Shown: positions 5,982-30,631, counted from the stretch's first letter. The stretch is 36,397 nucleotides of DNA from Gemmatimonadota bacterium (GCA_039656095.1 JBDHMQ010000002.1:1-36397); one strand, 5' to 3'. The notes: a model not told the origin generated them from the sequence alone. Made by a program: numbers and translations.

Positions 5982-6364
5982 GATTGTAGCCCGAGCAAGA
6001 TCGGTATGATTCCCGCCAGCACGGCAAGTACCGGAATCGGAAAAAAGTGTCTCAGGGGCTTCTTCCAGGCCGTCAGGAAGCAGGTCAGCGGCATCGCGAT
6101 TACGCCGACAAGGAATCCGGCTGAGGCGATGCTCGAGTGCAGTGGTGGCAGTGAGGCGACGGATATTGTTAGCCCGAACAGCAGATTCAGAAAGCCGATG
6201 CCAAAAAACGATATATGACCCAATCGAAGCATGCGTCGGCGATACGACGAATATCCACCCGCCCAACCTTCTTTGTGAAAGAACAGTCCGAGTACGCCGC
6301 CGGAGACGACCCCGAACAACATGGCGACCCACCCTACATATAGATGAAGGCTGTCAGTTGTCAT
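5978..6364 (-). CDS. Hypothetical membrane protein (GGYxSxRRRxLRLGH motif)
   Basis: GAGGAG RBS 9 nt before ATG 6364; about 4 hydrophobic helices. Confidence 0.8.
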   Translation of the reverse strand: MTTDSLHLYVGWVAMLFGVVSGGVLGLFFHKEGWAGGYSSYRRRMLRLGHISFFGIGFLNLLFGLTISVASLPPLHSSIASAGFLVGVIAMPLTCFLTAWKKPLRHFFPIPVLAVLAGIIPILLGLQS

Positions 6365-13324: not shown

Positions 13325-13945
13325 TCAATTTCCCTCCAGCCGCCGACTCCCATCTCCCTGGTAGACATACTCAATCGTCATGCATCCGGGCTCGGGTCCC
13401 GGACAGTAGTAGCCTAGTATGCGAAGCTTTGCGTATCGGCCGTCGGCGGTGCGCAGAACGAATGTCACCGGGTCCGGTTCAAGCAAATGGGAGAAAAAAT
13501 CGTACGAGTACCACTCGTCGAGAACAGCACTGACGGTGTCCCCGCCGGGGGTTACCCGGCTTGAAGCGTAGCCGTCAGTCGGTGCCTCGAAAACTTGTTC
13601 GAACGGAATTTCGAGGCGAATCACGCCAGCGTTGCCGCTGAATCCGTCGCCTCCGTTCACGGCCAGGCGATGACGCCGAACCCCGATATCCCAGGCATTA
13701 CCAGTAGTCTCGATCTGGCCGGTCGCGAGATCCAACAGGGTCCAACGGTCAGCATTCCTAGCGTCCAAAGTAACCGTGTCCGGGCCGGAAACCTGCGCCG
13801 GCTGGACTCGCGGTTCGAGGTCAGAAAGCCCGAACACCGGGGGATCGGGTTGCCTGAGTGAACCCACCACAATGGTGGCGACGGTGGCGACGAATAGTCC
13901 GCCGAGAACCAGCAGCCAAACGGGAGTAGTTTCGGTCGGCGTCAC
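13325..13945 (-). CDS. hmuY: HmuY-family heme-binding protein, N-terminally membrane anchored
   Basis: WDIGVRR...NGG, WYSYDFFSHLLEP, FVLRTADGRYAKLRILGYY are typical HmuY-fold motifs. Confidence 0.85.
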   Translation of the reverse strand: MTPTETTPVWLLVLGGLFVATVATIVVGSLRQPDPPVFGLSDLEPRVQPAQVSGPDTVTLDARNADRWTLLDLATGQIETTGNAWDIGVRRHRLAVNGGDGFSGNAGVIRLEIPFEQVFEAPTDGYASSRVTPGGDTVSAVLDEWYSYDFFSHLLEPDPVTFVLRTADGRYAKLRILGYYCPGPEPGCMTIEYVYQGDGSRRLEGN

Positions 13946-14255: not shown

Positions 14256-15140
14256 ATGACGCTCAAGCACCGGACCTATTCAGAAGTCACCGGCGCCGAT
14301 ACCTCCCGGATGGTCGAACAGGTAGCCGCGCAGCACGCTCGCGTCGCCGAACGATTGGATGGCGTAAAGGCGTGCATCGCGGTGATGAGCGGGAAGGGTG
14401 GTGTCGGAAAGAGTCTGACAACGGCGGCTCTTGCTTCCGCTTGTGCGAATCGCGGGCTCACCGTCGGCCTGCTTGATGCCGACCTCGTCGGACCCAGCGC
14501 CGCCCGGCTGTCGGGCGTACAGGTGACCGGCCTTACGGTGGATGAGAACGGGCTCGATCCGGCAATATCGCCGACTGGAGTTCGAATCATGTCGATGGAA
14601 TTGCTGCTTGAAGATGGCGCGCCACTGGCGTTCAGGCAGCCCTCGTCTGAGAGTTTCGTATGGCGGGGGGCGCAGGAACGTAGTGCGCTGCGTGAGTTTC
14701 TGGCCGATGTCCGATGGGGGAACCTCGATCTGCTGCTGGTCGACCTGCCGCCGGGTACGCAGCGACTCACAGACCTCGACGAGCTGCTACCCCGTCTGGA
14801 CGGATTGATCGTGGTCACGATTCCCTCGGCGGCTTCACAGGCGGCGGTGGGACGCTCGATGGAGCTGGCCAGGCAAAGGGACATTCAGATTCTTGGTATC
14901 GTAGAAAACATGGCCGGTTACGCCTGTGCGGATTGCGACGAGATTCAGCCACTGTTTCCGGGCGACGCCGGAGAGCAGCTTGCGTCCGCGTACGATACAG
15001 TTCTGCTCGGACGGATTCCGTTTGACGCTGAAGCCGCGGTTCACGCGAACACGGGTGCACTGGATCAACTAATGAACCACACGCTGGCGGGTGAAGCGAT
15101 CGACGCTGTCGCGCTGCAGCTCCTGGAGGCGATCGCATGA
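14256..15140 (+). CDS. apbC: Mrp/NBP35/ApbC-family P-loop ATPase (Fe-S carrier)
   Basis: SGKGGVGKS, DADLVGPS, WRG, DLPPGT, ENM...CADC; start ATG 14256. Confidence 0.9.
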   Translation: MTLKHRTYSEVTGADTSRMVEQVAAQHARVAERLDGVKACIAVMSGKGGVGKSLTTAALASACANRGLTVGLLDADLVGPSAARLSGVQVTGLTVDENGLDPAISPTGVRIMSMELLLEDGAPLAFRQPSSESFVWRGAQERSALREFLADVRWGNLDLLLVDLPPGTQRLTDLDELLPRLDGLIVVTIPSAASQAAVGRSMELARQRDIQILGIVENMAGYACADCDEIQPLFPGDAGEQLASAYDTVLLGRIPFDAEAAVHANTGALDQLMNHTLAGEAIDAVALQLLEAIA

Positions 15141-15601
15141 AATTTCTCTGCGTCGAATGCGACGAGCAGATGATCTTCGAAGAGCGCAACCTGCCGGGAG
15201 ACGGTACACTGGCCGCCGCTTTCCGCTGTCCTGGCTGCGAGCGCATTGTGGCAATGCTCACCAATCCCATGGAGACGCAGCTCGTCTCTGCTCTGGGCAT
15301 CAAGATCGGTGGCAGTGAAGTACCTGGGCAGCCGTTGGAGCTCGTGCGTAGCGAAATGGTCGGCGGTCGCGAGGACGCATTCGTGGACACCGAACCGACA
15401 GCCGCGGCGAATGTCTCTAAAGGCTCACCCGGCGTTGTCTGGAGTCTGGCGGCCGTAGAGCGTCTTGAGAGCGTTCCTCGCTTCGTGCGGGGCATGGTAA
15501 AGCGGATATATACGGACTACGCGCAGGAAAACGGCATTTCCCAGATCACACCAGACGTCATGGACCGCGCGCGCAGCGACCTCGGGCTTGAGGGCATGTG
15601 A
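15137..15601 (+). CDS. CxxC...CxxC metal-binding ribbon plus PCP_red (BchB C-terminal-like) domain protein
   Basis: CVEC...CPGC; C-terminal WSLAAVERLESVPRFVRGMVKRIYTDYAQENGISQITPDVMDRAR. Confidence 0.85.
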   Translation: MKFLCVECDEQMIFEERNLPGDGTLAAAFRCPGCERIVAMLTNPMETQLVSALGIKIGGSEVPGQPLELVRSEMVGGREDAFVDTEPTAAANVSKGSPGVVWSLAAVERLESVPRFVRGMVKRIYTDYAQENGISQITPDVMDRARSDLGLEGM

Positions 15602-15864
15602 GCGCTGAGGCCACGGATGACAGGGAGATCGTGCGCGTCGTTGGTGAGCTCACGATCACGATCGACCGTCTCCTGTGTGTCGGATTCGGAGATTGCATCG
15701 ACGAGGCCCCCGTGGCGTTTGAATTCGACGATGAGGACATAGCGATCCTGACACACCCTGAAAAAGTAGATCGGGAGCACCTTCTGCGAGCCTGCGAGTC
15801 CTGTCCCGTAGACGCGATCACGGTACTGGACGCGGCCGGTTTGACGATCGTCCCGCAGGACTAG
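15598..15864 (+). CDS. Single-cluster ferredoxin (probably [3Fe-4S])
   Basis: IDRLLCVGFGDC...ACESCPVDAI; the second cluster Cys position is Phe. Confidence 0.88.
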   Translation: MSAEATDDREIVRVVGELTITIDRLLCVGFGDCIDEAPVAFEFDDEDIAILTHPEKVDREHLLRACESCPVDAITVLDAAGLTIVPQD

Positions 15865-15873
15865 CGGCCGGCC

Positions 15874-16782
15874 ATGTCCAGTCGAATAGCGTTCGCAGAG
15901 AATCTGAAATTCTCCTACGGGACAGGTCCCGCAGTTCTCGATGATGTTTCACTGGAATTGCGATCCGGTGAAATCCTGGGGCTTCTCGGGCTGAATGGCT
16001 CGGGAAAGACGACGCTGCTCCGGCTTCTATCGCGACTCCTTCAGCCGACCAGCGGCCAACTGGGCGCAGCCGAAGCACCCGCTGTCGTGTTTGACCGGGC
16101 CCCGTTTCAGGCAAGTCTGTCCGGTCTGGAAAATATTGCTCTGGCGCTTGCTCTTCGCGGAGTGCGTGGAGATGAAGCGAAGACGGCCGCAAGCGCCTGG
16201 TTGCAGAGATTCGACCTGAGCGCCGATGAGCACCGACCCGTCGGTGAGTACTCCCTGGGCATGCGCCGTCGCCTGGGCCTGGCGGAAGCGTTTGCGTCCG
16301 AACGATCGTTGTGCTTGCTCGATGAGCCTACCCTCGGGCTGGATCCCGCCGGCCAGCAACTCCTCGGCCAGGCCCTGGCCGCCGGCGCTACGGCGGGACG
16401 CTCGGCGATCATTGCGACCAACGATGCGAACTTTGCCCAGCGAGTCTGCCATCGCGTACTCCTGCTTCATGACAGCCGTGTGCTCGCCGAAGGCACGCCT
16501 GACTCACTGATCACGTCGTTGGACGCACCGACGATCATCGAGGTTGTGACGGCCGGCGGTTTGCCCGTGGACAATCCACCGGAAGGACTATCTGTCGTCG
16601 CGTCAGCAGACAATCGCCTCACATTGTCAGGGACGGATTGCTCGGGTCGTCTTCCCGATGTGTGCCGATGGATTGAGGCCAGCGCGGGTTCGGTCCAGAC
16701 GATCAGAGTCCGGGAGCCTGATCTCGCCGATGTGTTTCTTCGTCTTGCCGGCCAGCCGCTAGTCACGGAATCTGAATCATGA
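15874..16782 (+). CDS. ABC-2 type exporter ATP-binding subunit
   Basis: GLNGSGKTT, YSLGMRRR, LLDEPT; C-terminal REPDLADVFL domain. Confidence 0.9.
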   Translation: MSSRIAFAENLKFSYGTGPAVLDDVSLELRSGEILGLLGLNGSGKTTLLRLLSRLLQPTSGQLGAAEAPAVVFDRAPFQASLSGLENIALALALRGVRGDEAKTAASAWLQRFDLSADEHRPVGEYSLGMRRRLGLAEAFASERSLCLLDEPTLGLDPAGQQLLGQALAAGATAGRSAIIATNDANFAQRVCHRVLLLHDSRVLAEGTPDSLITSLDAPTIIEVVTAGGLPVDNPPEGLSVVASADNRLTLSGTDCSGRLPDVCRWIEASAGSVQTIRVREPDLADVFLRLAGQPLVTESES

Positions 16783-17507
16783 CGGGTGCGATCTGGCGCC
16801 TGACCTGGGCGCTGGCCGTTCGACGACGACGTCTTCTGATCTGGAATTTTCTCGTGCCGATTCTGCTCCTCGTCCCCGTCATGACGAGTGCGGCCGCTGC
16901 ACAGCATCGAGCCGTGGTTGTGGCCGTATTCGTGATGTTCTTTGGGGTTTATGGCAGCTGTATTCCGCTGATTCGAGACTGAATGTCCGGGTGGGTGGAA
17001 AAAATTGGGCTCACCGGATTCGGGGGACGGCGCTGGCTGGTCGAGCGAACCCTCGCATCGACAGCCGTCGACTGGATGCAATTACTCCCCGTGAACCTGC
17101 TGCTGGTTCTGCTGTTAGGGATCCCAACCGATGCAGCATCCGCCATTCTCGTGGCAACTCTGCTCGCGTTGCTGTTTGCAAACCTGCTGGGCGTTCTGGT
17201 CGCCGCGTTCGTCCGAGCTCTAGGAGAGGCAGCGCTCGGATGTGCCGTGCTCTCGTTGTTTGCGCTTCACCTGGCCGGTGTGTTTCGCACGCCGGATCCC
17301 GGATCTCTGGGGGCGGCAGCCGAAGCGTGGAGCCCGCTGCGGCCGCTGCACGATTCCTGGGTGGGCGCTCTTCTGTCGGGAGGCTCCGAGGTCCTCTGGG
17401 CCAAGTGGATGATTCCGGTGGCTGCTCTGGGCGCGTTGCTGGTGCTGGTCGCATTTGCCGGGGATCGACTGGCGGCCCGAATTGCGGCGACCGATTCGGG
17501 CGCCTGA
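16779..17507 (+). pseudogene. ABC-2 type permease interrupted by an in-frame TGA (nonsense, read-through or sequence error)
   Basis: ORFs 16779..16982 and 16983..17507 are in the same frame, separated only by TGA; together they give a ~6-TM permease ending WSPLRPLHD. Confidence 0.7.
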
Positions 17508-17533
17508 TTCCGGATTTTACCGCCCACGGCCTG

Positions 17534-17794
17534 CTACAACCGCAAACCCTTCGGTACGACCCAGTGCTCCAGTGCGTCGAACAGTGCCTGTGCGCCCAGC
17601 GCCAGCAGCGCGGCCGGCGTGGCCGTCCCGATGTTGATTACGACGGCCGTCTTGATTCCGGCCATGATCAACGGGGACGCGAGGGGCAGCTCGATGCGGC
17701 GGAGAATCGTCCCGCGTGACAGTCCTAGCGCCTCGGCAGATTCACGCAGAGGACCTGGAATTCCGGTCAGTCCGGCGTGAGTGTTCCGTACGAC
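17534..17794 (-). pseudogene. Remnant of osmoprotectant (ProW/OpuBB-type) ABC permease
   Basis: VVRNTHAGL...[10 protein letters not shown]...[28 protein letters not shown] joins directly to PAALLAL; the N-terminus and the AxIGAGGxG segment are missing. Confidence 0.8.
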
Positions 17795-17865
17795 TTGCAG
17801 AGGCCGCTGATCTGAATCACGCCTGACAATAGAGCGTGTTACGAGACCGTGTAAGGGGTCCCGGG

Positions 17866-18573
17866 TCAAGCGCCGCCGAACTTGATCATCGTCATCGCCG
17901 GCAGCAGGTTGATCATCGTGTGCACGAGCACGGGTGCCACCAGGTTTCGTCCGCTACGCTCATACACGGCTCCCAGAACCAACCCCCCGATGACGCCCTG
18001 ACCCATCGCCGAGCCTATGGCGGGGCCTAACTGGCCATGCGTCGGCCAATTGGGATTCAAGTAGGCATACGGGATATGGTACATCCCGAACAGGACAGAC
18101 GTCACGACAACAGCCCACAACCTATTCTGAAACCACGCTCCGAGCCGTCCCTGGATGATGCCACGGAAGAAGAACTCTTCCGTGAAGGCGGCCGTCGCCA
18201 ACAAGAGCACGAAAGCGATCGGAAGCAGGAACAGGGCCTTGCCCGACCTGATCAACGACCAGATTGCCTCTGCCCGGTTCGACATGAACAGCTGCGCTAC
18301 ACTGAGTGCCAGGCCGAGAATTGCGGCCCACCAGAGGCCTGTCCGCCATGTCTCTCTCCGGAGTCCAATGGAAGCCAGTGTATCTCGAAACGTACCGTTC
18401 TTCTTGAGTTGAACCACGTGGAACAACGCTAACGGCAGGATGACAAGCGACAGCCAATGTTTCGCCTCGTTCTCGGGATAAAAGAACAGATAGATGAAGT
18501 ACAAGGCGAAATATGCGAGACTCAAGGCTGCTTCAACTCGATAGTGAGCGGATCTGACTTCTGAATCGGACAT
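17866..18573 (-). CDS. CPBP/Abi family intramembrane metalloprotease (type II CAAX)
   Basis: EEFFFRG, FGMYH and HTMIN motifs; multiple TM helices. Confidence 0.92.
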
Positions 18574-18657
18574 GGTTCTCTGCCATCGTAGAGGTCGACC
18601 ACAATTAGCTGAATTCCCTACGAAAAAATCCGTAAATAGGTTTCGGTTTTGGCAGGT

Positions 18658-18687
18658 TTGACGCGATATGCGGGGGCCTCATATATT
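18658..18687 (+). promoter_or_regulatory. Putative sigma70 promoter for the USP-rSAM-oxidase operon
   Basis: TTGACG, 18-bp spacer, TATATT, in an AT-richer intergenic region. Confidence 0.55.
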
Positions 18688-18859
18688 TTTGCCTGTCGCG
18701 TGTCCCCATTCGACCGGAAACGCAACGACTGGCAGGATCAATAACTGACATCGAGCGGGCCAGGTGGCCCGCTCCGCGCATAGATAAGGCCCGCTGTCTC
18801 CAATGGTGACCGGGTCGATTTGTTTGACGTTAAACATGGCTCGAACCACCGAGGTGGCG

Positions 18860-20974
18860 ATGTACCGTCAGGTACTCGTTCCGGTCGACAATTCAATTCA
18901 TTCTGATCTGGCAATGGATCGTGCCCTTGAGATCTGCTCGCGCAGCGGGGGACGCATCACGGCCACTCACGTGTATGCCGCCCGGCTACACGACATTCGC
19001 TTCCGCCAACTTGAAGTCGGTCTTCCGGCGCAATTCCAGGAGCCGCAGGAAATTCGCCGACAGAGGAAGATCCACGACAAGCTGATCGAGAAAGGGCTGC
19101 AGCTGATCTCGGACAGCTTTCTGGATGAGGTGGACAAGAAGGCGAAGCTTGCTGAAATCCCAATGACCCGGCAGCTGCTCGAGGGCATCCACTTTGAAGA
19201 GGTCGCCAGGGAGGCCAACAAGGGAGCCGGACGGTTACCAAGCCTGATCGGGTTTGATGCCAACATCGCCAGCAAGTACGACGGCGGTGACAACGTGCGC
19301 AGCGATGTGCAACTCACCGATGACGGCCGAATCATCGCCGAGGACGAGGATTCCGACGAAAAGCTCGCGGGCCGGAGCGATCGCGACTACGACCTGGTCG
19401 TCATGGGCGCGTATGGAATCGGCCGTCAGCCGCTCAGCCGAATCGGCGGAATGTCGGGCCGTGCACTGCGAAAGATCGAGAAAGACGTACTGATCGTGAG
19501 AGACGAGCGGCCGCTCGACGGCGGCTCACTCATGGTCTGTATCGACGGCTCCGCTTACTCCTACAAGTGCATGCGCATCGCCCTGGAACTGGCGCAGGAA
19601 TATGGCTGCAAGTTGTTCGTCGGGAGCGCTTTCGACGTCGAGTATCACCATGCCGTGTTCAACAACATCAAGGACGTTCTGTCTGTCCAGGCTTCAAAAG
19701 TGTTCAAGTTCGAGGAGCAGGAAGCCCTCCACAACAACATCATCGATAAGGGACTGTTGCGGCTGTGCAAGGCGAATCTGAAGCGTGCTGCCGTGATGGG
19801 AACCGAGTATCCGGACGTCGAAATCGAGACACAGATCCTGGTCGGCAAGCCGTTCCAGGTGATCCTGCAATGGGCAGAGGAAGAAAAGCCGTCACTGCTG
19901 GTTCTGGCACGACACGGATCCCATCGTATCGAGGGCACGGAGCTGGGATCGCAGGCCGAGGAAGTGGTGCGTGCCGTTGATGTCAACACGCTGCTTGTCG
20001 GGATCACGGACGTGCGTCCTGATGACATTCCGTGGATCGAAGAAGATGGTGAGACAGGCCTTGAATGGACTCCGGAGGCAGAAGTCCGCATCCTCCGCGT
20101 GCCGCCGTTCGCGCTTGGCATCGCCCGAAAAGCGGTCGAAGAGTATGTGCTGGAGCATCACGGCCCGGGCAGTCGCTATGCCGCCGCGTTCGTCGACGGG
20201 CCCAGCAAGATGGAAGTGCTGGCCGAAGGAAATAGCGCCTCGGTCAACGGATCCTCAACCGAGACGGCGGACGTTTCAGCTGAAACGCCCATCGTAACAC
20301 CCGAAGAGCTCCCGATCGTGACGAGTGAACGTCTCGACGAGGCGATCACGAAGCTCTTGCCGACCCACATGCAGCTGATCATGGGCATTGGTACCGCCGA
20401 AGAACTGGTCCTGGCCGAGTTGAAGGCGGAGCAGGCGATGGAGCGCACGGTCGTCAAGGGAATCGACGCCGACCCGGAGCCGGAGACGGCGATGGTCGAA
20501 ACGAAGTGCCCGGTCACGGGCCAGGCCCAGACCCGGGAGCGCACCGAGACTGATCCGGTCGAGTGGACACTTGAAGCATTCGCTCGCCTGAAGGCCGTGC
20601 CGCTTATTGCCCGTCCACTCGCCAGGAATACGGTCGAGAAATTCACCCGAGAAGCTGGTATGTGGCGGGTGACAACAATGGTGATGGACGACAACAAGCA
20701 GGCAATGATCGACGCGGACACATTCGATGTCGACACGATGCTTGTGATGTTTAAGGAATTGCAGACGAAGCAGATTCAGGCCGCAGCAGAGGGCGTAGAC
20801 GGAATGACGCCGGAGATGCGAAAGTTCATTGAAGAGGCGAAGGCGAGCGGCGTTACTCGTTGTCCGATACGCGACATGGAAGCCCAGGCGGAGAAGTGCC
20901 CGGTCGACTTCAAGACGGTTACGCCGGAAGAAGCAAGACAGGCGATGGAACAGTTCATGGCGGAGTCGGACTAG
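18860..20974 (+). CDS. Multidomain universal stress protein (USP-USP, 2x PCP_red-like, 3 Cys-Pro motifs)
   Basis: GAGGTGG RBS before ATG 18860; VLVPVDNS...DLVVMGAYG and MVCIDGS...LLVLARHG USP domains; WTPEAEVRILRVPPF and WTLEAFARLKAVPLI; KCPV, RCPI, KCPVD. Confidence 0.88.
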   Translation: MYRQVLVPVDNSIHSDLAMDRALEICSRSGGRITATHVYAARLHDIRFRQLEVGLPAQFQEPQEIRRQRKIHDKLIEKGLQLISDSFLDEVDKKAKLAEIPMTRQLLEGIHFEEVAREANKGAGRLPSLIGFDANIASKYDGGDNVRSDVQLTDDGRIIAEDEDSDEKLAGRSDRDYDLVVMGAYGIGRQPLSRIGGMSGRALRKIEKDVLIVRDERPLDGGSLMVCIDGSAYSYKCMRIALELAQEYGCKLFVGSAFDVEYHHAVFNNIKDVLSVQASKVFKFEEQEALHNNIIDKGLLRLCKANLKRAAVMGTEYPDVEIETQILVGKPFQVILQWAEEEKPSLLVLARHGSHRIEGTELGSQAEEVVRAVDVNTLLVGITDVRPDDIPWIEEDGETGLEWTPEAEVRILRVPPFALGIARKAVEEYVLEHHGPGSRYAAAFVDGPSKMEVLAEGNSASVNGSSTETADVSAETPIVTPEELPIVTSERLDEAITKLLPTHMQLIMGIGTAEELVLAELKAEQAMERTVVKGIDADPEPETAMVETKCPVTGQAQTRERTETDPVEWTLEAFARLKAVPLIARPLARNTVEKFTREAGMWRVTTMVMDDNKQAMIDADTFDVDTMLVMFKELQTKQIQAAAEGVDGMTPEMRKFIEEAKASGVTRCPIRDMEAQAEKCPVDFKTVTPEEARQAMEQFMAESD

Positions 20975-20977
20975 ATC

Positions 20978-22258
20978 GTGCCGATTCCGCACGTCGTCGC
21001 CTGGAACGTCACGCAACGCTGCAATCTTGCATGCGCCCATTGTTACATCTCGGCGGGTTCCTGGCACTCAGCGCAATCGGAACTGTCGACCGATGACTGC
21101 CTGCGCGTGGTTGATGAGATTCTCGCAGCGAATTCCTCGCCGATGCTTATCCTTTCAGGTGGAGAGCCTCTCGTGCGCGACGACCTGGAAACGATTGCGG
21201 CCCGGGCGACTGCCGGCGGCGCCACAGTCGTAGTCGGTACGAACGGAATCGGGCTCACCGACGAGCGGATCATTTCGTTGAAGGCGGCCGGCGTTCAGGG
21301 CGTGGCGGTAAGTATCGACTCGCTCGACCCGACCTACCACGATCGCTTCCGCCACGGTGCGGGCGCACTCGGTCAGACTCTTGAGGCCATCGATCGCCTG
21401 GCCCGGCACGAACTCGACTTCATCATCCAGACGACGGTCACACGGGGGAATCGAGCTGAGCTCGCTGATCTGGTCGACTGGGCGGCGGATAAGGGTGCGG
21501 TCTCGTTCAATCTCTACTTCCTGGTCGAGACAGGACGCGGAGAGGGGATGAAGGGGATGTCGCCCGAGGAGAACGATTCGGTTCTGGCAGAGCTGTTGTT
21601 ACTCGAGGCGAAGTACCGGGGCCGCATGATGGTTCGCTCGAAGTGCCAGCCCCAGATCATGCGCCACGCGTTTGAGGGTAGCAGCGATTCGCCGTTGTTG
21701 AACTACGAAACGCGGTGTCCGTGCGGCGTTCACTACTGCCGGATCACGCCCGAGGGTAAGGTCACGCCCTGCCCGTATATGCCTGCCGTGGCAGGCGATC
21801 TCATGGTGTCCACATTCAGCGAGATCTGGACCGGTTCAGAATTGTTCGCCTCACTGCGAGATCCGGAGCTTGGCGGGAAATGCGGCGTCTGCGAGTATCG
21901 AGAGGTTTGCGGTGGTTGCCGGGCGCGGGCGTATGCAAACTCGGGTGATCCGCTGGGCCCCGACGAGTCCTGTGCGTACGAACCGGACGGTAGCGCTGAG
22001 CTGATCCAGCCGGCTGCGACATCGGTGACTTACGGCTCTTCCGAACGTGAGTTTGTTCTGGCGTGGACGCCGGAAGCAGAAGCTCGGATCGGCCGAATAC
22101 CGTCGTTCGTACGCGGCGTAGTAGTAGACCGCGTTGAGACCTGGGCCCGGGAAAACGGACACGATGAGGTGACCGCTGAAATGTTGAGTCAGATGCGTAG
22201 CCGGATGCCGGTCGAATTTTCTCGTCGTCGCCCGTTCTTTCTTGGAGGAAAGCGATGA
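20978..22258 (+). CDS. Radical SAM/SPASM protein of AhbD/NirJ type with C-terminal PCP_red-like domain
   Basis: WNVTQRCNLACAHCY, SGGEPL, SPASM GKCGVCEYREVCGGCRARAY...DESC, C-terminal WTPEAEARIGRIPSFVR. Confidence 0.9.
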   Translation: MPIPHVVAWNVTQRCNLACAHCYISAGSWHSAQSELSTDDCLRVVDEILAANSSPMLILSGGEPLVRDDLETIAARATAGGATVVVGTNGIGLTDERIISLKAAGVQGVAVSIDSLDPTYHDRFRHGAGALGQTLEAIDRLARHELDFIIQTTVTRGNRAELADLVDWAADKGAVSFNLYFLVETGRGEGMKGMSPEENDSVLAELLLLEAKYRGRMMVRSKCQPQIMRHAFEGSSDSPLLNYETRCPCGVHYCRITPEGKVTPCPYMPAVAGDLMVSTFSEIWTGSELFASLRDPELGGKCGVCEYREVCGGCRARAYANSGDPLGPDESCAYEPDGSAELIQPAATSVTYGSSEREFVLAWTPEAEARIGRIPSFVRGVVVDRVETWARENGHDEVTAEMLSQMRSRMPVEFSRRRPFFLGGKR

Positions 22259-24051
22259 GCGGGGTGACTGCGCGACGTATCGGAATCTGGAGCTTTCTGG
22301 CTCTCGCCGGCTTGGCCCTTCTGGCGCTCGTCGCTCCGGAAAGTCTGCTTGCCCAGGACGCATCGCAGATTCGTAACTATGGCGACTTTCCGATCATCGG
22401 TGCCCGCGGGGCAATCTGGATCACGGCACAAGTTCACTTGATGTTTGCCGCTTTCGTGCTCGGCGTACCGATGTTCGCGGTCGTGGTCGAAGCGATCGGC
22501 ATTTTCGGAGGCGACAAGCGGTACGATAAGCTCGCTAAAGAATTCGCGCGGCTACTGCTGATCGCCTACAGTGCCACGGCGATCTGGGGCGCGATGTTGA
22601 CATTCGCGCTGTCCTCTCTCTATCCGGTGTTCTGGGCCTACCTGACAACGATCTTTGGACCCTCGATGTGGGTCTACGCGGGCCTGTTCCTGGTAGAATC
22701 ATTCACTCTCTATCTCTACTATTACGGTTGGGATCGATGGAGCGTGGGGAGGGCGAAGTATTGGCACTGGGGCCTCGGAATTCTGCTCAACATCTGGGGC
22801 ACGATCGTGATGTTCATCGCGAACGGGTGGCTCACTTACATGATGAGCCCGCCGGCCGAAGTGACGGCAGACACCGCGCCGGACCAGGTTCAGTTGTGGA
22901 GTGCAATTTTTAACGCGACCTGGATGCCGATCAATATCCACCGCATGATCGCGAATGTCGTTTTCGGTGGTGCAATCGTCGGGATGTACGCGGGCTACCG
23001 GTTCCTTGCTGCGAAGACTGATGAAGAACGGGCGCATTACGATTGGATGGGGTACATCGGCAACTTCATCGCAATCGGTGCGCTGATCGTTCTGCCATTT
23101 GCCGGCTACTACCTCGGCCGTGAGATCTACGAATTCAACCAGCAGATGGGGATCACCATGATGGGTGGTTTCATGAGCTGGCTGTGGATCATCCAGGCAT
23201 TCCTGATCGGTGTTCTGTTCCTGGCCGGTAACTACTACCTGTGGATCGGAATGGGCCGGATTCCCGGTGCCGAGCGATTCACCCCGTACATCAAGTACAT
23301 GCTGGTGGTCCTTGTTCTCGGGGTCATCGTCTGGGCAACGCCTCACACCATGATTGCGAGCCGCGACGAGATTGCGGCAATGGGAGGTACGCACCACCCG
23401 TTCCTCGGCGCCCTTGGCGTGATGAGCGCAAAGAACACAGCGGTCAACCTGATGATCCTGACGACCTTCCTTTCATTCATGTTGTATCGGAGGGCGAACA
23501 AGATTCCGGTCGTCAGCTGGGCAAAATCGGGGACCATCGCGCAGGGCGCGGCGCTGGTGATCGCGGCGGTTGTCGTCGTCTTCTATGGTGTCTACGGCTA
23601 CTTCGTCACGGCAATTGTGAGAATTGGGTTCAGCGTCTACCAGGTGATGGCTGTCCTGGTCGCGATGCTGTTTGTGGTCGTCCTCGATGTGATGATGTTG
23701 CGGGGAGCGCAATCGCGCGGTGAGATCCGCTGGGGCCAGATGCCGGCTCGATCTCAGTACGCGCTATTCATCCTGGCTGTGACTTTCACGTGGCTCATGG
23801 GCCTCATGGGCTTCGCACGGAGCGGTATCCGCCAGCACTGGCATGTCTACGAAGTGATTCGTGATACCAGTAGCCAGGCGGCGACACCGGCGCTCGGACC
23901 GGCCGCAACGATGATCAGTGTGTGCGTATTGATTTTCCTGTCTCTCGTCGCGGTCATCTTCTGGCTCGGAGGTCTCGCCGAGAAGCCGGCGCACATAGAC
24001 CGGGCAGATCTCGTCACATCTGTACCTGCTCCGACCGGAGGGGAGGCCTGA
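22255..24051 (+). CDS. Cytochrome bd-like (CydA-fold) oxidoreductase, divergent family
   Basis: VHLMF, FLVESFTLYLYYYGWD, ANGWLTYMMSP, NIHRM and C-terminal GIRQHW align with the CydA motifs H19, E107/GWD, ANGWMQxP, H186 and GRQPW. Confidence 0.85.
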   Translation: MSGVTARRIGIWSFLALAGLALLALVAPESLLAQDASQIRNYGDFPIIGARGAIWITAQVHLMFAAFVLGVPMFAVVVEAIGIFGGDKRYDKLAKEFARLLLIAYSATAIWGAMLTFALSSLYPVFWAYLTTIFGPSMWVYAGLFLVESFTLYLYYYGWDRWSVGRAKYWHWGLGILLNIWGTIVMFIANGWLTYMMSPPAEVTADTAPDQVQLWSAIFNATWMPINIHRMIANVVFGGAIVGMYAGYRFLAAKTDEERAHYDWMGYIGNFIAIGALIVLPFAGYYLGREIYEFNQQMGITMMGGFMSWLWIIQAFLIGVLFLAGNYYLWIGMGRIPGAERFTPYIKYMLVVLVLGVIVWATPHTMIASRDEIAAMGGTHHPFLGALGVMSAKNTAVNLMILTTFLSFMLYRRANKIPVVSWAKSGTIAQGAALVIAAVVVVFYGVYGYFVTAIVRIGFSVYQVMAVLVAMLFVVVLDVMMLRGAQSRGEIRWGQMPARSQYALFILAVTFTWLMGLMGFARSGIRQHWHVYEVIRDTSSQAATPALGPAATMISVCVLIFLSLVAVIFWLGGLAEKPAHIDRADLVTSVPAPTGGEA

Positions 24052-24052
24052 T

Positions 24053-24832
24053 ATGTGGCGTACGAACCTGTCGGTCGCGCTGGTCGTCCTGGGTACGCTC
24101 GGCATCTATACGGCCGTGGCGAACATGATTCCGCAGTTGGAGTCGGACGTGCCCGAAGAGCTCGTGTTTAGCGCGGACGTCTCGCCTGAGGAGCTCGTGG
24201 CCGCCGGTGAGGTGCTGTATACCGGTGGAGGCGGCTGCATCGCCTGCCACGGTCTCGGCACAAGAGCGCCAAGGTTGGTCGGCACGATCGGAACCGTATG
24301 TGACTCGCGCGCACCTGCAATGTCCTGCAAGGACTATCTGCACGAGTCCCTCGTGAACCCGACCGCCTACGTGGTCGATGGCTTTCAGCCCATCATGCCG
24401 GACATGAGCCGCACTCTGTCCGATGCTCAGATCTGGAGTCTGGTGGCATTCCTGCAGAGCCAGGGCGGCGAGGTGACGGTGACAGCGGCCGATCTCGCGC
24501 CAAGAGGCGATGCTGCAGACTCAGGCGCCGGTCCCGCGCCAGTAACTGGAGAAGCCACGGCCAGAGACATCGATGCCGCGGCGCTTGTCCAGTCCCTCGG
24601 CTGCACCGCTTGCCATGCTTCCGGTGATGCGCCCGGCGGGATCGGGCCGGCTATGTCGGCGATGGCCGAACTCGAACCCGAGTACATTCGCCGCTCGATC
24701 GTCGAACCAGCCGCAGATACGGCGGTTGGATTCGAAGCGTTCGCCGGTACCATGCCACCGACACTTGGAGAACAGCTCACGGAATCTCAGCTCGAGGCAC
24801 TGGTGACCTACCTTGCGAGCGGAGCAGAGTGA
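24053..24832 (+). CDS. Membrane-anchored di-heme cytochrome c
   Basis: CIACH and CTACH, each with a downstream MP ligand motif; N-terminal TM. Confidence 0.9.
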   Translation: MWRTNLSVALVVLGTLGIYTAVANMIPQLESDVPEELVFSADVSPEELVAAGEVLYTGGGGCIACHGLGTRAPRLVGTIGTVCDSRAPAMSCKDYLHESLVNPTAYVVDGFQPIMPDMSRTLSDAQIWSLVAFLQSQGGEVTVTAADLAPRGDAADSGAGPAPVTGEATARDIDAAALVQSLGCTACHASGDAPGGIGPAMSAMAELEPEYIRRSIVEPAADTAVGFEAFAGTMPPTLGEQLTESQLEALVTYLASGAE

Positions 24833-25653
24833 TGACCCAACCAGGCAATTCACCCCGAGGCCTGAAGCATCCGTTCTGGCAGGCTGCCCTGCTGCTCGTC
24901 CTGTCATTTCTCCTGATCCGGTATGGAATCGCGATACTTCCGCCGCTGGTCGGCGTGGAGAGTGCACCCGTACCTGCATCCGTCGTCCTGCAGTTCATGG
25001 TGACTGCCCTGGTGGGTGTGCTGCTGTACGTGAGTGCTGATGAGACGCGCTGGACACAGTTCAAGCAGCCGATTCACGGCGTGGCCGTCGACGCGGACAA
25101 AAAGCTACTGCGCACCGCCATGTTGGTTGGCATTCCGGTGTTCGTCGGCTTCCTGACGTATCAGCAGGTTAGTGCCAGCGTCGGAGCTCCACCGGCCCTG
25201 CGCTCCATACATCCAGCGCCGCCCAATCAGGTCACGTTCCGTGGGTCGTCGATGCGCCTCGCCGGTCTAGAGAATCCACTGAGGACGACCGGCGACATGA
25301 CAGTACACTTGCAGACGGGAAAGACGGTCTACGTCCGTAACTGCATGCCATGCCATGGCGACCTCCTGGATGGTAGAGGGCACTTCGCCCGTGGATTCAA
25401 TCCCGTCCCGGCCGATTTCACTAGCAATGGGACGATAGCCCAGCTTACCGAGAGCTATGTGTTCTGGCGGATCGCCAAAGGCGGCCCTGGCCTGCCGAAG
25501 GAAGGGACGCCCTGGGACTCTGCGATGCCCGCCTGGGAAGATGTTCTGACGGAGAACGAAGTCTGGTCGGTCATCCTGTACCTGTATGACCAGACCGGCT
25601 GGTCGCCTCGCACCTGGGAAGAAGCGGAAGAGGGCGAAGGGGGTGAACATTGA
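24832..25653 (+). CDS. Membrane-bound (3 TM) mono-heme cytochrome c
   Basis: CMPCH, SAMPAW; three N-terminal hydrophobic helices. Confidence 0.9.
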   Translation: MTQPGNSPRGLKHPFWQAALLLVLSFLLIRYGIAILPPLVGVESAPVPASVVLQFMVTALVGVLLYVSADETRWTQFKQPIHGVAVDADKKLLRTAMLVGIPVFVGFLTYQQVSASVGAPPALRSIHPAPPNQVTFRGSSMRLAGLENPLRTTGDMTVHLQTGKTVYVRNCMPCHGDLLDGRGHFARGFNPVPADFTSNGTIAQLTESYVFWRIAKGGPGLPKEGTPWDSAMPAWEDVLTENEVWSVILYLYDQTGWSPRTWEEAEEGEGGEH

Positions 25654-27197
25654 ATACCGTCCGCCTGAGCCGCGTCGTCGCGGCCGTTCTCGGCCTGTCT
25701 GTATTTCTGGTGCTTCCTGTTGCCGCGCAGGACGTGGATAATGGCGAGCTGATCTACGACAAGTGGTGTGCCGAGTGCCATGGTGTGGAGGGGCGCGGCG
25801 ACGGTCCGGCTGCTGACTATATGCTCCCAAGGCCCCGCGACTTCGTGCAGGCCCGATACCAGATCCGCACCACGGCCAACGGCGAATTACCTACCGACGC
25901 AGACATCCTTCAAGTGCTTCAGCTGGGTATGCCGGGCACGACCATGCCGGCTTGGCCAAATCTCAACGATACGGAACGCCGTGATGTCATAGCGTTCATC
26001 AAGAGTTTTTCCCGCTTCTTTGACGGGTCGGATCCACAGTTGCCAGAGGTCGTGTCCGACCCGGGCGGTGGAGCCGATGCCATCGAGTCCGGCCGAACCG
26101 TTTTCGAAACGCTCGAGTGCTGGAAGTGTCACGGAGAATCGGGACGAGGCAGTGGCCAGTCGACAGCGACGCTCGAGGATTGGCGGGAATACCCGATTCG
26201 GGCAGCTGACCTGACGGAACCCTGGATGTTCAACGGCGGCGGCAGCGCTGACGCTATTTACCTTCGGATGATGACAGGCCTGGACGGCACACCCATGCCT
26301 GCCTACAGCGACGCCGTCGATTCGGAGGTCGTGAGCCCGGAAGAGCTGTGGAACGTAGCGCACTACGTAGCGAGCCTGGCCCCGACGCTTGCGCCACGAA
26401 CTGCCGACTTCATCTCCGCGTCCCGCGTCGAGGGAGAGCTGCCGACGGCACCTGATGACGATGTCTGGGCTTCAGCAAAAGCGTTCTATGTTCCGCTCGT
26501 GGGCCAGGTGATCCGCCCGCCGCGAAATTTCGCCCCGACGGTAGACGGGATGTGGATTCGCGCCCTGCACGACGGTTCAAGCGTAGCACTGCACCTGAGT
26601 TGGGGCGATCCGTCCAACAGCCCGGACTCGTCCTGGACCGAGTGGCAGACGAAGGTCGTAGATGCCATGACGCCGGACGGGGCAACGCTGTCGCCCACCG
26701 ATCCGATGACAGACGGAATCGCCGTGCAATTTCCGGCGAGCATCCCGGACGGTACCGAACGCCCGTATTTCTTGATGGGCGAGGCAAATGATCCGGTAAC
26801 GCTATGGACGTGGGACAGTCGATCTGGGGTGGCAGAAGCCAGTGGCCGCGGTCTCGGCCACATCGACGGACTCACGGGAAGCGATCTTAATGCCGAGGCG
26901 CGCTGGAACGAGGGTCACTGGGAGTTGATGCTGACCCGATCAATCGTTTCGGAAGCTGAGGGCGCGATCGATCTGGCCGAAGGCGTTGTGATTCCTGCCG
27001 CGATGTTTGCATGGGACGGTTCGAGCGCCGAGTCGTCGGACCGAGGATCTGTAAGCAGCTGGATCTATTTGTATCTCGAGGAGCCATCTTCTTCCAATGT
27101 CGTCATTGCTCCGATCGTCGCAATCCTGCTCAGCGGAGGGCTGTTGCTCCTGCTGGTCCGGGGTGCGCAGAAGCGCGCGGCGACCGTAGAAATCTAG
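25650..27197 (+). CDS. Di-heme cytochrome c fused to an EB_dh/DOMON-like heme-b domain and C-terminal TM anchor
   Basis: Signal peptide; CAECH and CWKCH; WGDPS...DGIAVQFP...PYFLMG...AWDG pattern of ethylbenzene dehydrogenase gamma-type domains. Confidence 0.87.
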   Translation: MNTVRLSRVVAAVLGLSVFLVLPVAAQDVDNGELIYDKWCAECHGVEGRGDGPAADYMLPRPRDFVQARYQIRTTANGELPTDADILQVLQLGMPGTTMPAWPNLNDTERRDVIAFIKSFSRFFDGSDPQLPEVVSDPGGGADAIESGRTVFETLECWKCHGESGRGSGQSTATLEDWREYPIRAADLTEPWMFNGGGSADAIYLRMMTGLDGTPMPAYSDAVDSEVVSPEELWNVAHYVASLAPTLAPRTADFISASRVEGELPTAPDDDVWASAKAFYVPLVGQVIRPPRNFAPTVDGMWIRALHDGSSVALHLSWGDPSNSPDSSWTEWQTKVVDAMTPDGATLSPTDPMTDGIAVQFPASIPDGTERPYFLMGEANDPVTLWTWDSRSGVAEASGRGLGHIDGLTGSDLNAEARWNEGHWELMLTRSIVSEAEGAIDLAEGVVIPAAMFAWDGSSAESSDRGSVSSWIYLYLEEPSSSNVVIAPIVAILLSGGLLLLLVRGAQKRAATVEI

Positions 27198-27238
27198 GAT
27201 TTTCAGAAGCAAACCTTAGCAACAAACAGGAGGCCAGG

Positions 27239-28096
27239 ATGTCATTCAGGGACTCAACGTGGGTCGCTCTTTTCGCGGCCGTCGCTCTCGGCTGTGGTGG
27301 CGGAGACGGTGACGCGGGCAGCAGTGATGGTGGTGGTGATGCCGGTAGCGATGCACCGGCAGCAGCGCCTGCTGTCGATCCGGCCATAGCGGCCACGGTC
27401 AGTGGTACGGTGAGCTTCACGGGCACCGCACCGGCGGGCACGGCGATCGATATGTCCGAGGAGCCGGCCTGCGCAGAAAAGCACACGACCACGCCGATGA
27501 TCCAGCCCGTACGAGTCGGTGACGGGGGCGGACTTGGCGATGTGTTTGTCTACGTGAAGGAAGGTCTCGGCGACATGACGTTTCCGACGCCGGCAGCCGC
27601 AGCCGTTCTCGATCAGAACGGCTGCGAGTACGCACCGCATGTGGTCGGAGTGATGGCGGGCCAGGATCTCAACATCAGGAACAGCGACCCTGTGCTCCAC
27701 AACATCAACACGCAGCCCGAGATCAATCGCGGCTTTAACGTCAGCCAGCCGCGTGCCGGCATGGAGTCTACCCGGACGTTCCGGGATGCCGAGGTCATGA
27801 TCCCGGTCAAGTGCGACGTCCACGGCTGGATGAACGCGTACATCGGCGTGACAGACAATCCGTACCATGCCGTGTCGTCGGCAGACGGCAGCTTCACGAT
27901 CAGCGGTCTTCCGCCGGGTGAGTATGTGATCGAGGCCTGGCATGCTACGCTCGGCGTATCCACGCAAACCATTACGGTTGGGGACGCGGAGACTGGTACG
28001 GCGGACTTTTCGTTCAGCGAAGACATGGCTGGCGGGCCGGTTCCGATGGGCGAAACCGTCGATCTGGCACACCCGGCAGGCCACACGGCGGGCTGA
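27239..28096 (+). CDS. Lipoprotein with cupredoxin-like and carboxypeptidase-regulatory-like domains
   Basis: AGGAGG RBS; lipobox ALGC; LHNIN...CDVHGWM type-1 copper ligand set; DGSFTISGLPPGEYVIEAWH. Confidence 0.85.
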   Translation: MSFRDSTWVALFAAVALGCGGGDGDAGSSDGGGDAGSDAPAAAPAVDPAIAATVSGTVSFTGTAPAGTAIDMSEEPACAEKHTTTPMIQPVRVGDGGGLGDVFVYVKEGLGDMTFPTPAAAAVLDQNGCEYAPHVVGVMAGQDLNIRNSDPVLHNINTQPEINRGFNVSQPRAGMESTRTFRDAEVMIPVKCDVHGWMNAYIGVTDNPYHAVSSADGSFTISGLPPGEYVIEAWHATLGVSTQTITVGDAETGTADFSFSEDMAGGPVPMGETVDLAHPAGHTAG

Positions 28097-28149: not shown

Positions 28150-28833
28150 ATGGATTGGTCGTTTCCGATCAACATCTCCACGCAGGGCGTGGGGATCGAC
28201 AACATGTTCTGGTTGATCTTCTGGATCACCGGCGCCGCCTTCTTAATCGTAGAAGTCGGCGTGCTGTGGTTCCTGTGGAAATACCGGGCTCGCGACGGCC
28301 ACAAGGCCAGATACACGCATGGTCATCTGGGGGCGGAAATCATCTGGACCACGATTCCCGCGGTCACGATGGTCGCCCTGGGCATCATGAGTGGCCAGAT
28401 GTGGGCTGATATTCGCAGCCCGAGTTCGTTCCCGGAGAATGCGCTGACCATAGGCGTCAGCGCGAAGCAGTTCGAATGGAACGTCACGTATCCCGGCGCC
28501 GATCGTGTGCTCGGTAACGAAGACGATTTCACGATCAGGAATCGATTTGAGTTTCCTGTTGATGAACCGGTCATTGTTCGGCTCGAGTCCGAAGATGTCA
28601 TCCATTCCTTCTTCATTCCGGAGATGCGGGTGAAGCAGGACGCCGTACCCGGCATGACGATCCCCATCTGGTTCGAAGCGACCCAGACCGGGGAATTCCA
28701 GATAGCGTGTGCGGAACTATGTGGCCTTGGCCATTACCGCATGAGAGCCCGTGTCGTCGTGCACGAGGCGGATGCATTCAATCGCTGGTACGACGAACAC
28801 ACGGGCGCGGCTCAAGTCGCCGCTGCCGATTAA
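28150..28833 (+). CDS. coxB: Cytochrome c oxidase subunit II
   Basis: Two TM helices; DVIHSF and CAELCGLGHYRM CuA motifs; no fused cytochrome c. Confidence 0.96.
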   Translation: MDWSFPINISTQGVGIDNMFWLIFWITGAAFLIVEVGVLWFLWKYRARDGHKARYTHGHLGAEIIWTTIPAVTMVALGIMSGQMWADIRSPSSFPENALTIGVSAKQFEWNVTYPGADRVLGNEDDFTIRNRFEFPVDEPVIVRLESEDVIHSFFIPEMRVKQDAVPGMTIPIWFEATQTGEFQIACAELCGLGHYRMRARVVVHEADAFNRWYDEHTGAAQVAAAD

Positions 28834-28851
28834 CTGGAGGAAGTTTCGCGT

Positions 28852-30606: not shown

Positions 30607-30631
30607 ACGCACCCGGAACGAGAGAGTCTGA

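Follow-up and report, generated by a model that had tools for sequence, protein, structure and literature searches.

PCP_red domains mark three proteins of a conserved gene module beside a bd-like oxidase in Gemmatimonadota

The stretch of DNA analysed in this study, referred to here as the window, comprises 36,397 nucleotides of a Gemmatimonadota metagenome-assembled genome (MAG; GCA_039656095.1, JBDHMQ010000002.1:1-36397), an assembly of 2.3 Mb that is 85% complete and comes from a non-photosynthetic bacterium. Between positions 14,256 and 22,258 it encodes three otherwise unrelated proteins that carry the small helical domain PCP_red (PF08369), which is known as the C-terminal end of BchB/ChlB, a subunit of dark protochlorophyllide reductase (DPOR). 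These are a 154-residue protein with a Cys4 ribbon, a 723-residue tandem universal stress protein (USP), and a 426-residue radical S-adenosylmethionine (SAM) enzyme. PCP_red thereby marks three cytoplasmic proteins of an accessory module beside a bd-like oxidase of the OR-N or 'TO_1' type. The gene set is conserved and probably makes or hands over haem for this unusual respiratory oxidase. Its features are as follows, with profile scores in brackets.

14256-15140, plus strand: Mrp/NBP35-type P-loop ATPase (PF10609, 208.7 bits against a cut-off of 27.1)
15137-15601, plus strand: ribbon protein, 154 residues, with Cys4 ribbon, conserved linker and C-terminal PCP_red (PF08369, 46.2 bits)
15598-15864, plus strand: single-cluster [4Fe-4S]/[3Fe-4S]-type ferredoxin (PF13370, 38.7 bits)
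18803-20974, plus strand: tandem-USP protein, 723 residues, with two PCP_red copies (PF00582, 105.3 bits; PF08369, 59.6 bits)
About 20057-20158 and about 20318-20362, plus strand: PCP_red copy 1 of the USP protein, split by a loop of about 50 residues (from profile and model)
20507-20512, plus strand: Cys-Pro motif 1 (C569-P570), 19-20 residues ahead of the Trp in PCP_red copy 2
20564-20701, plus strand: PCP_red copy 2 of the USP protein (PF08369)
20861-20866, plus strand: Cys-Pro motif 2 (C687-P688), 48 residues after PCP_red copy 2
20897-20902, plus strand: Cys-Pro motif 3 (C699-P700), 60 residues after PCP_red copy 2
20978-22258, plus strand: radical SAM/SPASM enzyme of the AhbD/NirJ2 clade with C-terminal PCP_red at 22064-22198 (PF04055, 88.5 bits; PF13186, 30.2 bits; PF08369, 54.7 bits)
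22255-24051, plus strand: CydA-like ('bd-like') membrane subunit (PF01654, 72.5 bits)
24053-27197, plus strand: three cytochrome genes, the first two for a dihaem cytochrome c and a cytochrome c, the third for a dihaem cytochrome c joined to a haem b domain of the EB_dh type (PF13442, PF00034, PF09459; TIGR03477, 90.9 bits)

Start and stop codons overlap by 4 nucleotides between the Mrp and ribbon genes, between the ribbon and ferredoxin genes, and between the radical SAM and oxidase genes.

Four copies of PCP_red

All three proteins exceed the PF08369 gathering cut-off of 32.5 bits when searched against Pfam-A with hmmscan. The ribbon protein matches at residues 102-146 (nucleotides 15440-15574), the USP protein over two stretches, best at residues 588-631 (nucleotides 20564-20695), and the radical SAM enzyme at residues 363-407 (nucleotides 22064-22198). 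A six-frame search of the whole MAG with PF08369 gave four matches, all in the window and at the places where an earlier note, made from the sequence alone, had seen the domain, and it returned no copy of the BchB type. The fourth match (20066-20155) covers profile positions 1-30 only and, at 26.1 bits, falls below the cut-off on its own. Three observations show it to be the first two helices of a split copy. A local hidden Markov model built from the other copies aligns through its positions 2-35 to USP residues 419-452 (28.6 bits). An AlphaFold2 model of the C-terminal half of the USP protein (residues 405-723, 319 residues; mean predicted local confidence, pLDDT, 67.6; predicted template-modelling score, pTM, 0.49) has bridge-helix-helix, an interruption, and bridge-helix here, the pattern being that of copy 2. 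Lastly, a paralogue in the relative G018 has about 10 residues at the site of the loop of about 50. The stretch between the two halves (model residues 59-90) has pLDDT below 50. Four copies may be an undercount for this genome, as a paralogous oxidase cluster on a second contig stops near the contig end.

With the USP model as query, Foldseek ranked the PCP_red structures 2KRU first (probability 1.00, template-modelling score to target 0.78, root-mean-square deviation 0.8 over 51 columns), 2L09 second (probability 1.00, score to target 0.69) and chain D of 2YNM, which is ChlB, fourth (probability 0.94). The E-values of these entries are 0.11-0.88, for a multi-domain query of 319 residues with which none of the 279 matches reached E ≤ 0.001, and besides the PCP_red entries no fold relative was found among those matches for the rest of the USP C-terminal half. 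The radical SAM model has the same secondary-structure pattern at its PCP_red as the USP model. In all four cases this is truly the small three-helix unit, able to fold by itself, with which BchB and ChlB end, and the copies reported in the earlier note therefore hold up both in profile and in fold.

The window's copies share with the BchB/ChlB C-terminus (2KRU; 2L09, the stand-alone Asr4154; 2YNM chain D) the sequence family, the bridge-helix-helix-bridge-helix fold, and the Trp, Arg, Pro and Arg positions, the columns conserved across copies being Trp, Ala, Arg, Pro, Arg and Thr. In BchB, as putatively in the radical SAM enzyme, the domain ends an iron-sulfur enzyme acting on a tetrapyrrole. 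Unlike BchB, however, the window proteins have no nitrogenase-like body, and their PCP_red is repeated, split, distributed over three proteins and flanked by Cys-Pro. The NCBIfam BchB models TIGR01278 and NF002789 match over their last ~70 positions only, with 37-40 bits against cut-offs of 490-509. Among the Foldseek matches listed, 2YNM ChlB, which is in complex with the L protein, is the only DPOR chain aligned on PCP_red, and the NB-only entries 2xdq, 3aek and 8vqi, which contain the PCP_red sequence, are absent. Binding of the ATPase may be what orders the domain in DPOR. Work on DPOR describes, in the passages available, a trans-acting BchB helix (residues 398-420) and not the terminal domain (PMC12022308; PMC4071322; PMC13474568; PMC7317204; PMC7242693; 10.1101/2025.02.17.634645).

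The radical SAM enzyme, the USP protein and the oxidase

The best NCBIfam families for the radical SAM enzyme are NirJ2 (TIGR04055, 277.1 bits) and AhbD (TIGR04545, 276.0 bits), both below the equivalog cut-off of 500, and it aligns with them end to end (positions 1-325 and 1-339, respectively). A CX3CX2C motif (C15, C19 and C22) and a CX2CX5CX2CX17C motif (C302, C305, C311, C314 and C332) are invariant in all 12 aligned homologues, and the second of these is the auxiliary-cluster motif of AhbD, as given in the available part of PMC10114771. By family and motif, the enzyme belongs to the AhbD/NirJ2 haem clade. It differs from AhbD and NirJ2 in the added C-terminal PCP_red (three copies in some other lineages), in its lower scores, and in the fixed position of its gene beside the USP-PCP_red gene and the bd-like oxidase. 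The preferred reading is that it represents a new subfamily and acts on side chains of a haem-type substrate independently of oxygen, as an addition to an existing aerobic route.

For organisms with the coproporphyrin pathway, an AhbD-like enzyme 'might be responsible' for the O2-free decarboxylation of coproheme, in the words of a passage of PMC10114771. The O2-dependent enzyme for the coproheme step, ChdC, occurs in 28 of 41 relatives from the same order, made up of 18 of the 27 with the module and 10 of the 14 without, and in four of them (G004, G015, G016 and G023) it is on the module's own contig. ChdC was not found in the window's genome, where, by synteny with G004, it would be expected just beyond the contig end. 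A search of the same genome with TIGR04545 gave no AhbC-like partner, the next-best matches scoring 77 and 64 bits. The AhbD-like radical SAM proteins of genomes without the module (293-303 bits) were considered as orthologues lacking PCP_red and were rejected; the one compared, from G030, shares 29% identity over 350 residues and is missing the fourth Cys in the AhbD motif, which places it in another subfamily.

The C-terminal half is the most conserved part of the USP protein. Its three Cys-Pro motifs, C569-P, C687-P and C699-P, flank PCP_red copy 2. All three are unchanged in 79 of 79 sequences, and none of the other Cys residues is conserved throughout. Motif 1 forms part of a beta-hairpin loop within a block that is modelled at a mean pLDDT of ~90, and motifs 2 and 3 are in segments with pLDDT below 50. 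Similar arrangements recur more widely. A profile of the four copies found 1518 representatives of 50% clusters (E ≤ 0.001), many of which have the domain 2-6 times in tandem, and 56 of the best 150 carry a Cys-Pro motif outside PCP_red, with preferred spacings. The spacing of motif 1 (19) was found again in 13 further representative proteins and the +48/+60 pair in several others, the recurring forms including [KR]CP[YVI]TG at -19 and GGCPF[SA] at about -22 to -31. Within the 150, Cys residues outside CxxC pairs are followed by Pro in 83 of 366 cases against a Pro frequency of 0.049, counts which overstate independence because the representatives are interrelated.

Cys-Pro motifs known from haem regulation lie mostly in loops, bind Fe(III)-haem via the thiolate and are a mark of transient haem binding, according to the part of PMC10377097 that was available. 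The three USP motifs likewise lie in loops or disordered stretches, with a hydrophobic residue following the Cys-Pro, and would by this likeness be predicted to bind haem. HemW offers a second parallel, as a protein of radical SAM type from which respiratory enzymes receive haem (PMC10114771, in the part available), though this likeness is one of function only, with no sequence relation to HemW.

The CydA-like protein matches PF01654 over profile positions 2-248 of 418 only, which is the N-terminal half. What makes this cluster a bd-like oxidase is a CydA-like protein that lacks the quinol-binding half, accompanied by two cytochromes c and an EB_dh-type cytochrome b in the periplasm. The same composition is described, in the passages available, for the 'TO_1' complex of Nitrospirota, which in Ca. 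Manganitrophus strain Mn1 is expressed more highly than any other terminal-oxidase cluster, bd-like oxidases being highly expressed in nitrite- and manganese-oxidising bacteria (10.1101/2021.11.15.468770). The cluster also fits the OR-N family, which is described in part of a second paper as lacking the quinol site (10.1101/2021.01.16.426971). USP-PCP_red proteins occur in the same phyla. The available passages of these two papers, in contrast, make no mention of radical SAM, USP, Mrp or PCP_red genes, and 'radical SAM' occurs nowhere in the OR-N paper.

A paralogous bd-like cluster in G018 (C15, L087) consists of a CydA-like gene, cytochromes and then its own USP-PCP_red gene, encoding 617 residues with two of the three Cys-Pro motifs kept; there is no radical SAM or Mrp gene within the 18 kb examined. 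The window's genome has the same cluster on contig C15 (11576-13393, L168), with a CarboxypepD_reg protein, a CydA-like protein (52% identity) and three cytochromes. This contig ends ~260 nucleotides after the last cytochrome gene, where G018 has its USP-PCP_red gene, and a fifth PCP_red gene may therefore lie unassembled.

Conservation, the Mrp pair and neighbouring genes

Related loci were collected by scanning with the radical SAM alignment, one genome being taken per species, which gave 274 relatives, and the best 80 loci were used. By their titles 77 of these belong to Gemmatimonadota, Gemmatimonadetes, Gemmatimonadales, Gemmatimonadaceae, Longimicrobiales or Ca. Palauibacter and three (L025, L030 and L052) to Gammaproteobacteria. 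The common order is [ferredoxin]-Mrp-ribbon-[ferredoxin]-[ABC]-USP-rSAM-CydA-like-cytochromes-aa3 oxidase, where rSAM is the radical SAM gene, ABC stands for ATP-binding cassette genes, and brackets mark genes whose place or presence varies. Counted by tblastn of the window proteins, with numbers limited by the many loci cut by contig ends, the radical SAM and CydA-like genes are present in all 80 (the latter at 59-91% identity), USP-PCP_red in 79, ribbon-PCP_red in 71, the ferredoxin in 66, either before Mrp or after the ribbon gene, and Mrp in 65. ABC genes, found in 45, are an optional part of the module. Among the 41 genomes of the same order, PCP_red is present in 27 and the CydA-like protein in 25; both occur in 25 genomes, neither in 14, PCP_red without the oxidase in two fragmentary genomes (G005 and G029), and the oxidase without PCP_red in none. 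The two are thus jointly present or missing in 39 of 41 relatives.

Beyond the phylum, Pfam domains on the best 150 of the 1518 representatives include Usp (33), rubredoxin-like ribbons (18), Radical_SAM (8), SPASM (7) and a haem-oxygenase-like domain (1), so that the window's three architectures are found together in other lineages as well. The members that bear a name belong to Nitrospinota, Ca. Manganitrophus, Myxococcota and Dormibacteraeota/Chloroflexota, and include phyla with described bd-like oxidases. In a second set, of 80 metagenome loci from other lineages fetched with an alignment of USP-PCP_red proteins, tblastn found the AhbD-like radical SAM gene in 54 (three of these, at ≤ 48 bits, being domain cross-matches), CydA-like in 18, ribbon-type proteins in eight and Mrp in five. 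The open reading frame with the radical SAM core also carries PCP_red in 44 of the 80, with one copy in 38 and three in six, and the USP proteins have 2-5 copies. The stable core is accordingly the pair of USP-PCP_red and radical SAM-PCP_red, with Mrp and the ribbon protein as a frequent addition in Gemmatimonadota. In the same metagenome loci (e.g., L158:7398-9809 and L139:7268-7867) a B12-binding radical SAM gene precedes the USP gene in 29 of 80 and resembles slr0320 ('photosystem II high light acclimation'; 445 bits, below a cut-off of 775), and a CopD-like membrane protein follows the radical SAM gene in 35 of 80.

This distribution bears on the idea that PCP_red serves purely for pairing between proteins, the USP repeats being a scaffold for the radical SAM enzyme and the Mrp-bound ribbon protein, with no tetrapyrrole on the domain. 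PCP_red is found on both partners wherever the USP and radical SAM genes are adjacent (44/80 metagenome and 79-80/80 Gemmatimonadota loci), and arrays with 2-6 copies in tandem are frequent. For helix 2 there are two sequence classes, 'FVRG' in BchB, the ribbon protein and the radical SAM enzyme and 'FALGIAR' or 'LIARPLAR' in the two USP copies, which would suit heterotypic pairing, and entire helices are invariant within each orthologue set, beyond what fold stability needs. The copy numbers are, however, unmatched, at 2-5 on the USP protein against one or three on the radical SAM enzyme; a rule by which the USP copy number would equal that of the radical SAM enzyme plus the small protein was tried and rejected, as there is no fixed relation. 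DPOR also counts against pairing, with one PCP_red per BchB and no partner protein known to carry the domain. Pairing of this kind is judged a rather unlikely explanation of PCP_red.

The Mrp gene has its longest open reading frame from 14133, and its orthologues align from 14256. The deviant Walker A motif that it had been said to share with BchL is present as SGKGGVGKS and is invariant in 31 of 31 orthologues, and a CxxC motif (CADC in the window) is found in 27 of the 31. Its family score and these two motifs place it with the Mrp/NBP35/ApbC carriers. It differs from them in lacking the DUF59 N-terminal domain (Pfam gives only PF10609 and related P-loop families), in scoring 201.9 bits against the NCBIfam equivalog MrpORP (cut-off 450), in the loss of CxxC in four of 31 orthologues, which weakens a strict cluster-carrier reading, and in having a partner that carries PCP_red. 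The four orthologues that have lost both cysteines (L014, L016, L021 and L043) still lie beside a ribbon-PCP_red gene with invariant Cys4. In the ribbon protein, C5, C8, C31, C34 and the tail LGLEGM are invariant in 32 of 32 sequences. Its family numbers 4339 proteins at E ≤ 0.001 among 4385 candidates scored, and an ESM Atlas search with residues 1-95 found its own family only. Apparent fusions of Mrp to the ribbon protein in six loci were rejected, the text ahead of the ribbon protein being an off-frame translation rich in Arg, Gly and Pro.

A complex of two Mrp chains and the ribbon protein was predicted from their own alignments (31 and 32 rows), alongside three controls. The interface score ipSAE was 0.67 against 0.01 for the best control, and the mark applied had been reached for 58 of 80 solved complexes as against 2 of 110 mismatched pairs, a calibration that is only rough for alignments made in this study. 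The prediction runs agreed in at least 87% of contacts, with partner pLDDT of at least 77. The confident contacts on the ribbon protein are residues 1-86 and 123, the Cys4 ribbon and linker, and residue 123 apart they lie outside PCP_red (102-146), residues left unnamed by the tool being uncertain rather than demonstrated free of contact. The model supports binding of the ribbon protein to the Mrp dimer through its N-terminal half, and with contacts so placed the protein resembles an adaptor, with that half on Mrp and PCP_red facing something else. A pair of this kind is known in HypB and HypA, a SIMIBI NTPase and its zinc-ribbon partner, to which the small Cys4-ribbon protein predicted on the Mrp dimer is analogous.

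The earlier note had suggested that PCP_red tags clients for recruitment to the Mrp ATPase, and had proposed multimer modelling as a check. That modelling, done for the ribbon protein, does predict binding, but through a surface other than the supposed tag. In the fullest form of the proposal, each PCP_red would dock directly on the Mrp dimer as a NifH/BchL-like partner and so recruit three clients. This can appeal to the Walker A motif common to Mrp and BchL, to the Mrp and ribbon genes being always adjacent and overlapping, and to the alignment of PCP_red, among the Foldseek matches listed, only in the DPOR chain that is bound to the L protein. It is nevertheless very improbable, since the predicted contacts fall elsewhere, Mrp is rare near USP and radical SAM pairs outside the phylum (5/80) and has lost CxxC in some orthologues, and the N-terminal half of the ribbon protein suffices to explain the adjacency. 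The idea of a shared tag survives in a general sense.

Another explanation that draws on the Mrp pair is that the module serves iron-sulfur clusters and not haem, with PCP_red and Cys-Pro passing clusters from Mrp to the three-cluster radical SAM enzyme, or to the NB protein in the case of DPOR. By their NCBIfam names, Mrp/NBP35 proteins carry clusters, the ribbon protein is predicted on Mrp, and rubredoxin-like ribbons occur with PCP_red in 18 of the best 150 representatives. The known enzymes that bear PCP_red (BchB and the radical SAM enzyme) are all iron-sulfur enzymes, and Cys-Pro is also typical of the DUF59/SufT cluster-assembly motif, although the window's Mrp is without DUF59. The four orthologues without CxxC, in which the gene pair is kept, speak against it, as do the five of 80 USP-family loci outside the phylum with an Mrp gene and the paralogous oxidase cluster, where USP-PCP_red stands without an adjacent radical SAM or Mrp gene. 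A role in cluster transfer is judged quite unlikely.

The remaining genes of the region are these.

4641-6332, minus strand: B12-binding radical SAM protein with DUF4070 (HpnJ, 98 bits; BchE, 83 bits; no family above cut-off)
13325-13945, minus strand: HmuY-like protein of a haem-binding family, divergent and directly upstream of Mrp (by tblastn in 32/80 related loci)
15874-16782, plus strand: ABC ATPase (PF00005, 88.4 bits)
16779-17507, plus strand: ABC-2 permease with an in-frame TGA at 16980-16982 (weak PF01061 match)
17866-18573, minus strand: CPBP/Rce1-like protease between the ABC genes and the USP gene (PF02517, 71.4 bits)
27011-28096: CarboxypepD_reg-domain protein between the bd-like cluster and the aa3-type oxidase
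28150-31234, plus strand: aa3-type oxidase (COX2, COX1, COX3)

The TGA in the permease gene stands directly before an ATG and divides it into 67 and 174 codons. In 44 of 45 related loci the frame stays open over 68 or more residues upstream, so that the window copy is broken, mis-sequenced or read through. The CPBP protease is at this place in only one of 80 related loci (L006), which makes it a recent insertion into the module. The CarboxypepD_reg junction between the two oxidases is kept in 59-63 of the 80 loci, and a protein of this kind also precedes the paralogous bd-like cluster. The B12-binding radical SAM protein of the window was considered as the slr0320-like enzyme of the metagenome loci and rejected, the match extending over 126 residues only, at 30% identity.

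A possible role for the shared domain

The reading preferred here, at a probability of roughly 0.4, is that PCP_red is a shared handle on a line that makes haem and hands it over to the bd-like oxidase. The radical SAM enzyme would act as an O2-independent, AhbD-type enzyme on a haem-type tetrapyrrole, most simply converting coproheme to haem b, and the ferredoxin would supply the electron for SAM cleavage. Mrp, with the N-terminal half of the ribbon protein predicted to be seated on it, may load or repair the iron-sulfur clusters of the radical SAM enzyme. The USP protein would take up or sense the haem product and couple it to the oxidase. PCP_red itself would be a flexibly tethered common handle that brings together, on a single line of tetrapyrrole transfer, proteins that are not otherwise related. 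It would either hold the tetrapyrrole itself, with an adjacent Cys-Pro as iron ligand, or pair with the PCP_red units of its partners, and it would not be the part that docks on Mrp. The earlier note had put forward, as its other suggestion, a tetrapyrrole-modifying metabolon in a non-photosynthetic setting with the ferredoxin as reductant. This would fit better than the recruitment to Mrp, and its support is one of context, namely the AhbD/NirJ2 clade, the oxidase operon, and the presence of PCP_red on radical SAM and USP proteins across phyla.

Several points weigh against a haem line with PCP_red as its handle. Binding of tetrapyrroles by PCP_red is hypothetical. No His, Cys, Met or Tyr is conserved in the domain, which therefore cannot ligate haem iron on its own; any tetrapyrrole would have to be held by stacking and by contacts between Arg and propionate, and any iron ligand would have to be supplied from elsewhere. 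Iron-sulfur and zinc sites contain Cys-Pro as well, and the motifs of the USP protein could, unlike those of haem regulation, be metal ligands instead; with the invariant H522, a site of three Cys and one His is possible. At 276-277 bits against a cut-off of 500, the radical SAM enzyme is of a separate subfamily and its reaction may differ, and its structure model (mean pLDDT 59, pTM 0.56, from a 12-row alignment) is too poor to place PCP_red. The presence of ChdC in 18 of 27 genomes with the module indicates that the module is dispensable for haem b as such. Finally, the co-occurrence counts come from non-independent relatives, in one phylum plus metagenome contigs.

A bolder form of the haem line, which is unlikely, takes PCP_red with its flanking Cys-Pro as an unrecognised cytoplasmic tetrapyrrole-carrier unit, the arrays on the USP, radical SAM and ribbon proteins forming a relay that would receive haem from its O2-independent synthase and insert it into the bd-like oxidase. 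If this were true, the haem could even be a new derivative made by the divergent AhbD-like enzyme, and the domain that ends BchB would be an identical device for chlorophyll precursors.

The pieces of the module can each be assigned to families already known (PCP_red, AhbD/NirJ2, USP, Mrp and the bd-like oxidases), and what sets it apart is their assembly: an AhbD-like haem enzyme, assigned as such by sequence, with a dedicated set of PCP_red partners and tied to bd-like oxidases. The literature that joins bd-like oxidases, universal stress proteins and radical SAM enzymes does not describe it in the parts searched, the supplements, where operon tables may be found, lying outside that search, and no title or opening of an abstract retrieved for PCP_red or PF08369 concerns this gene module. 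The module is a conserved set of helper genes welded to bd-like oxidases, encoding a radical SAM enzyme of haem type, a USP protein that binds nucleotides and bears Cys-Pro motifs, and a pair of Mrp and adaptor. As such, it offers a handle on how bd-like oxidases get their haems at scarce oxygen, on the function of the orphan PCP_red domain, that of DPOR included, and on whether AhbD-like enzymes serve the coproporphyrin pathway anaerobically, a question that PMC10114771, in the part available, leaves open.

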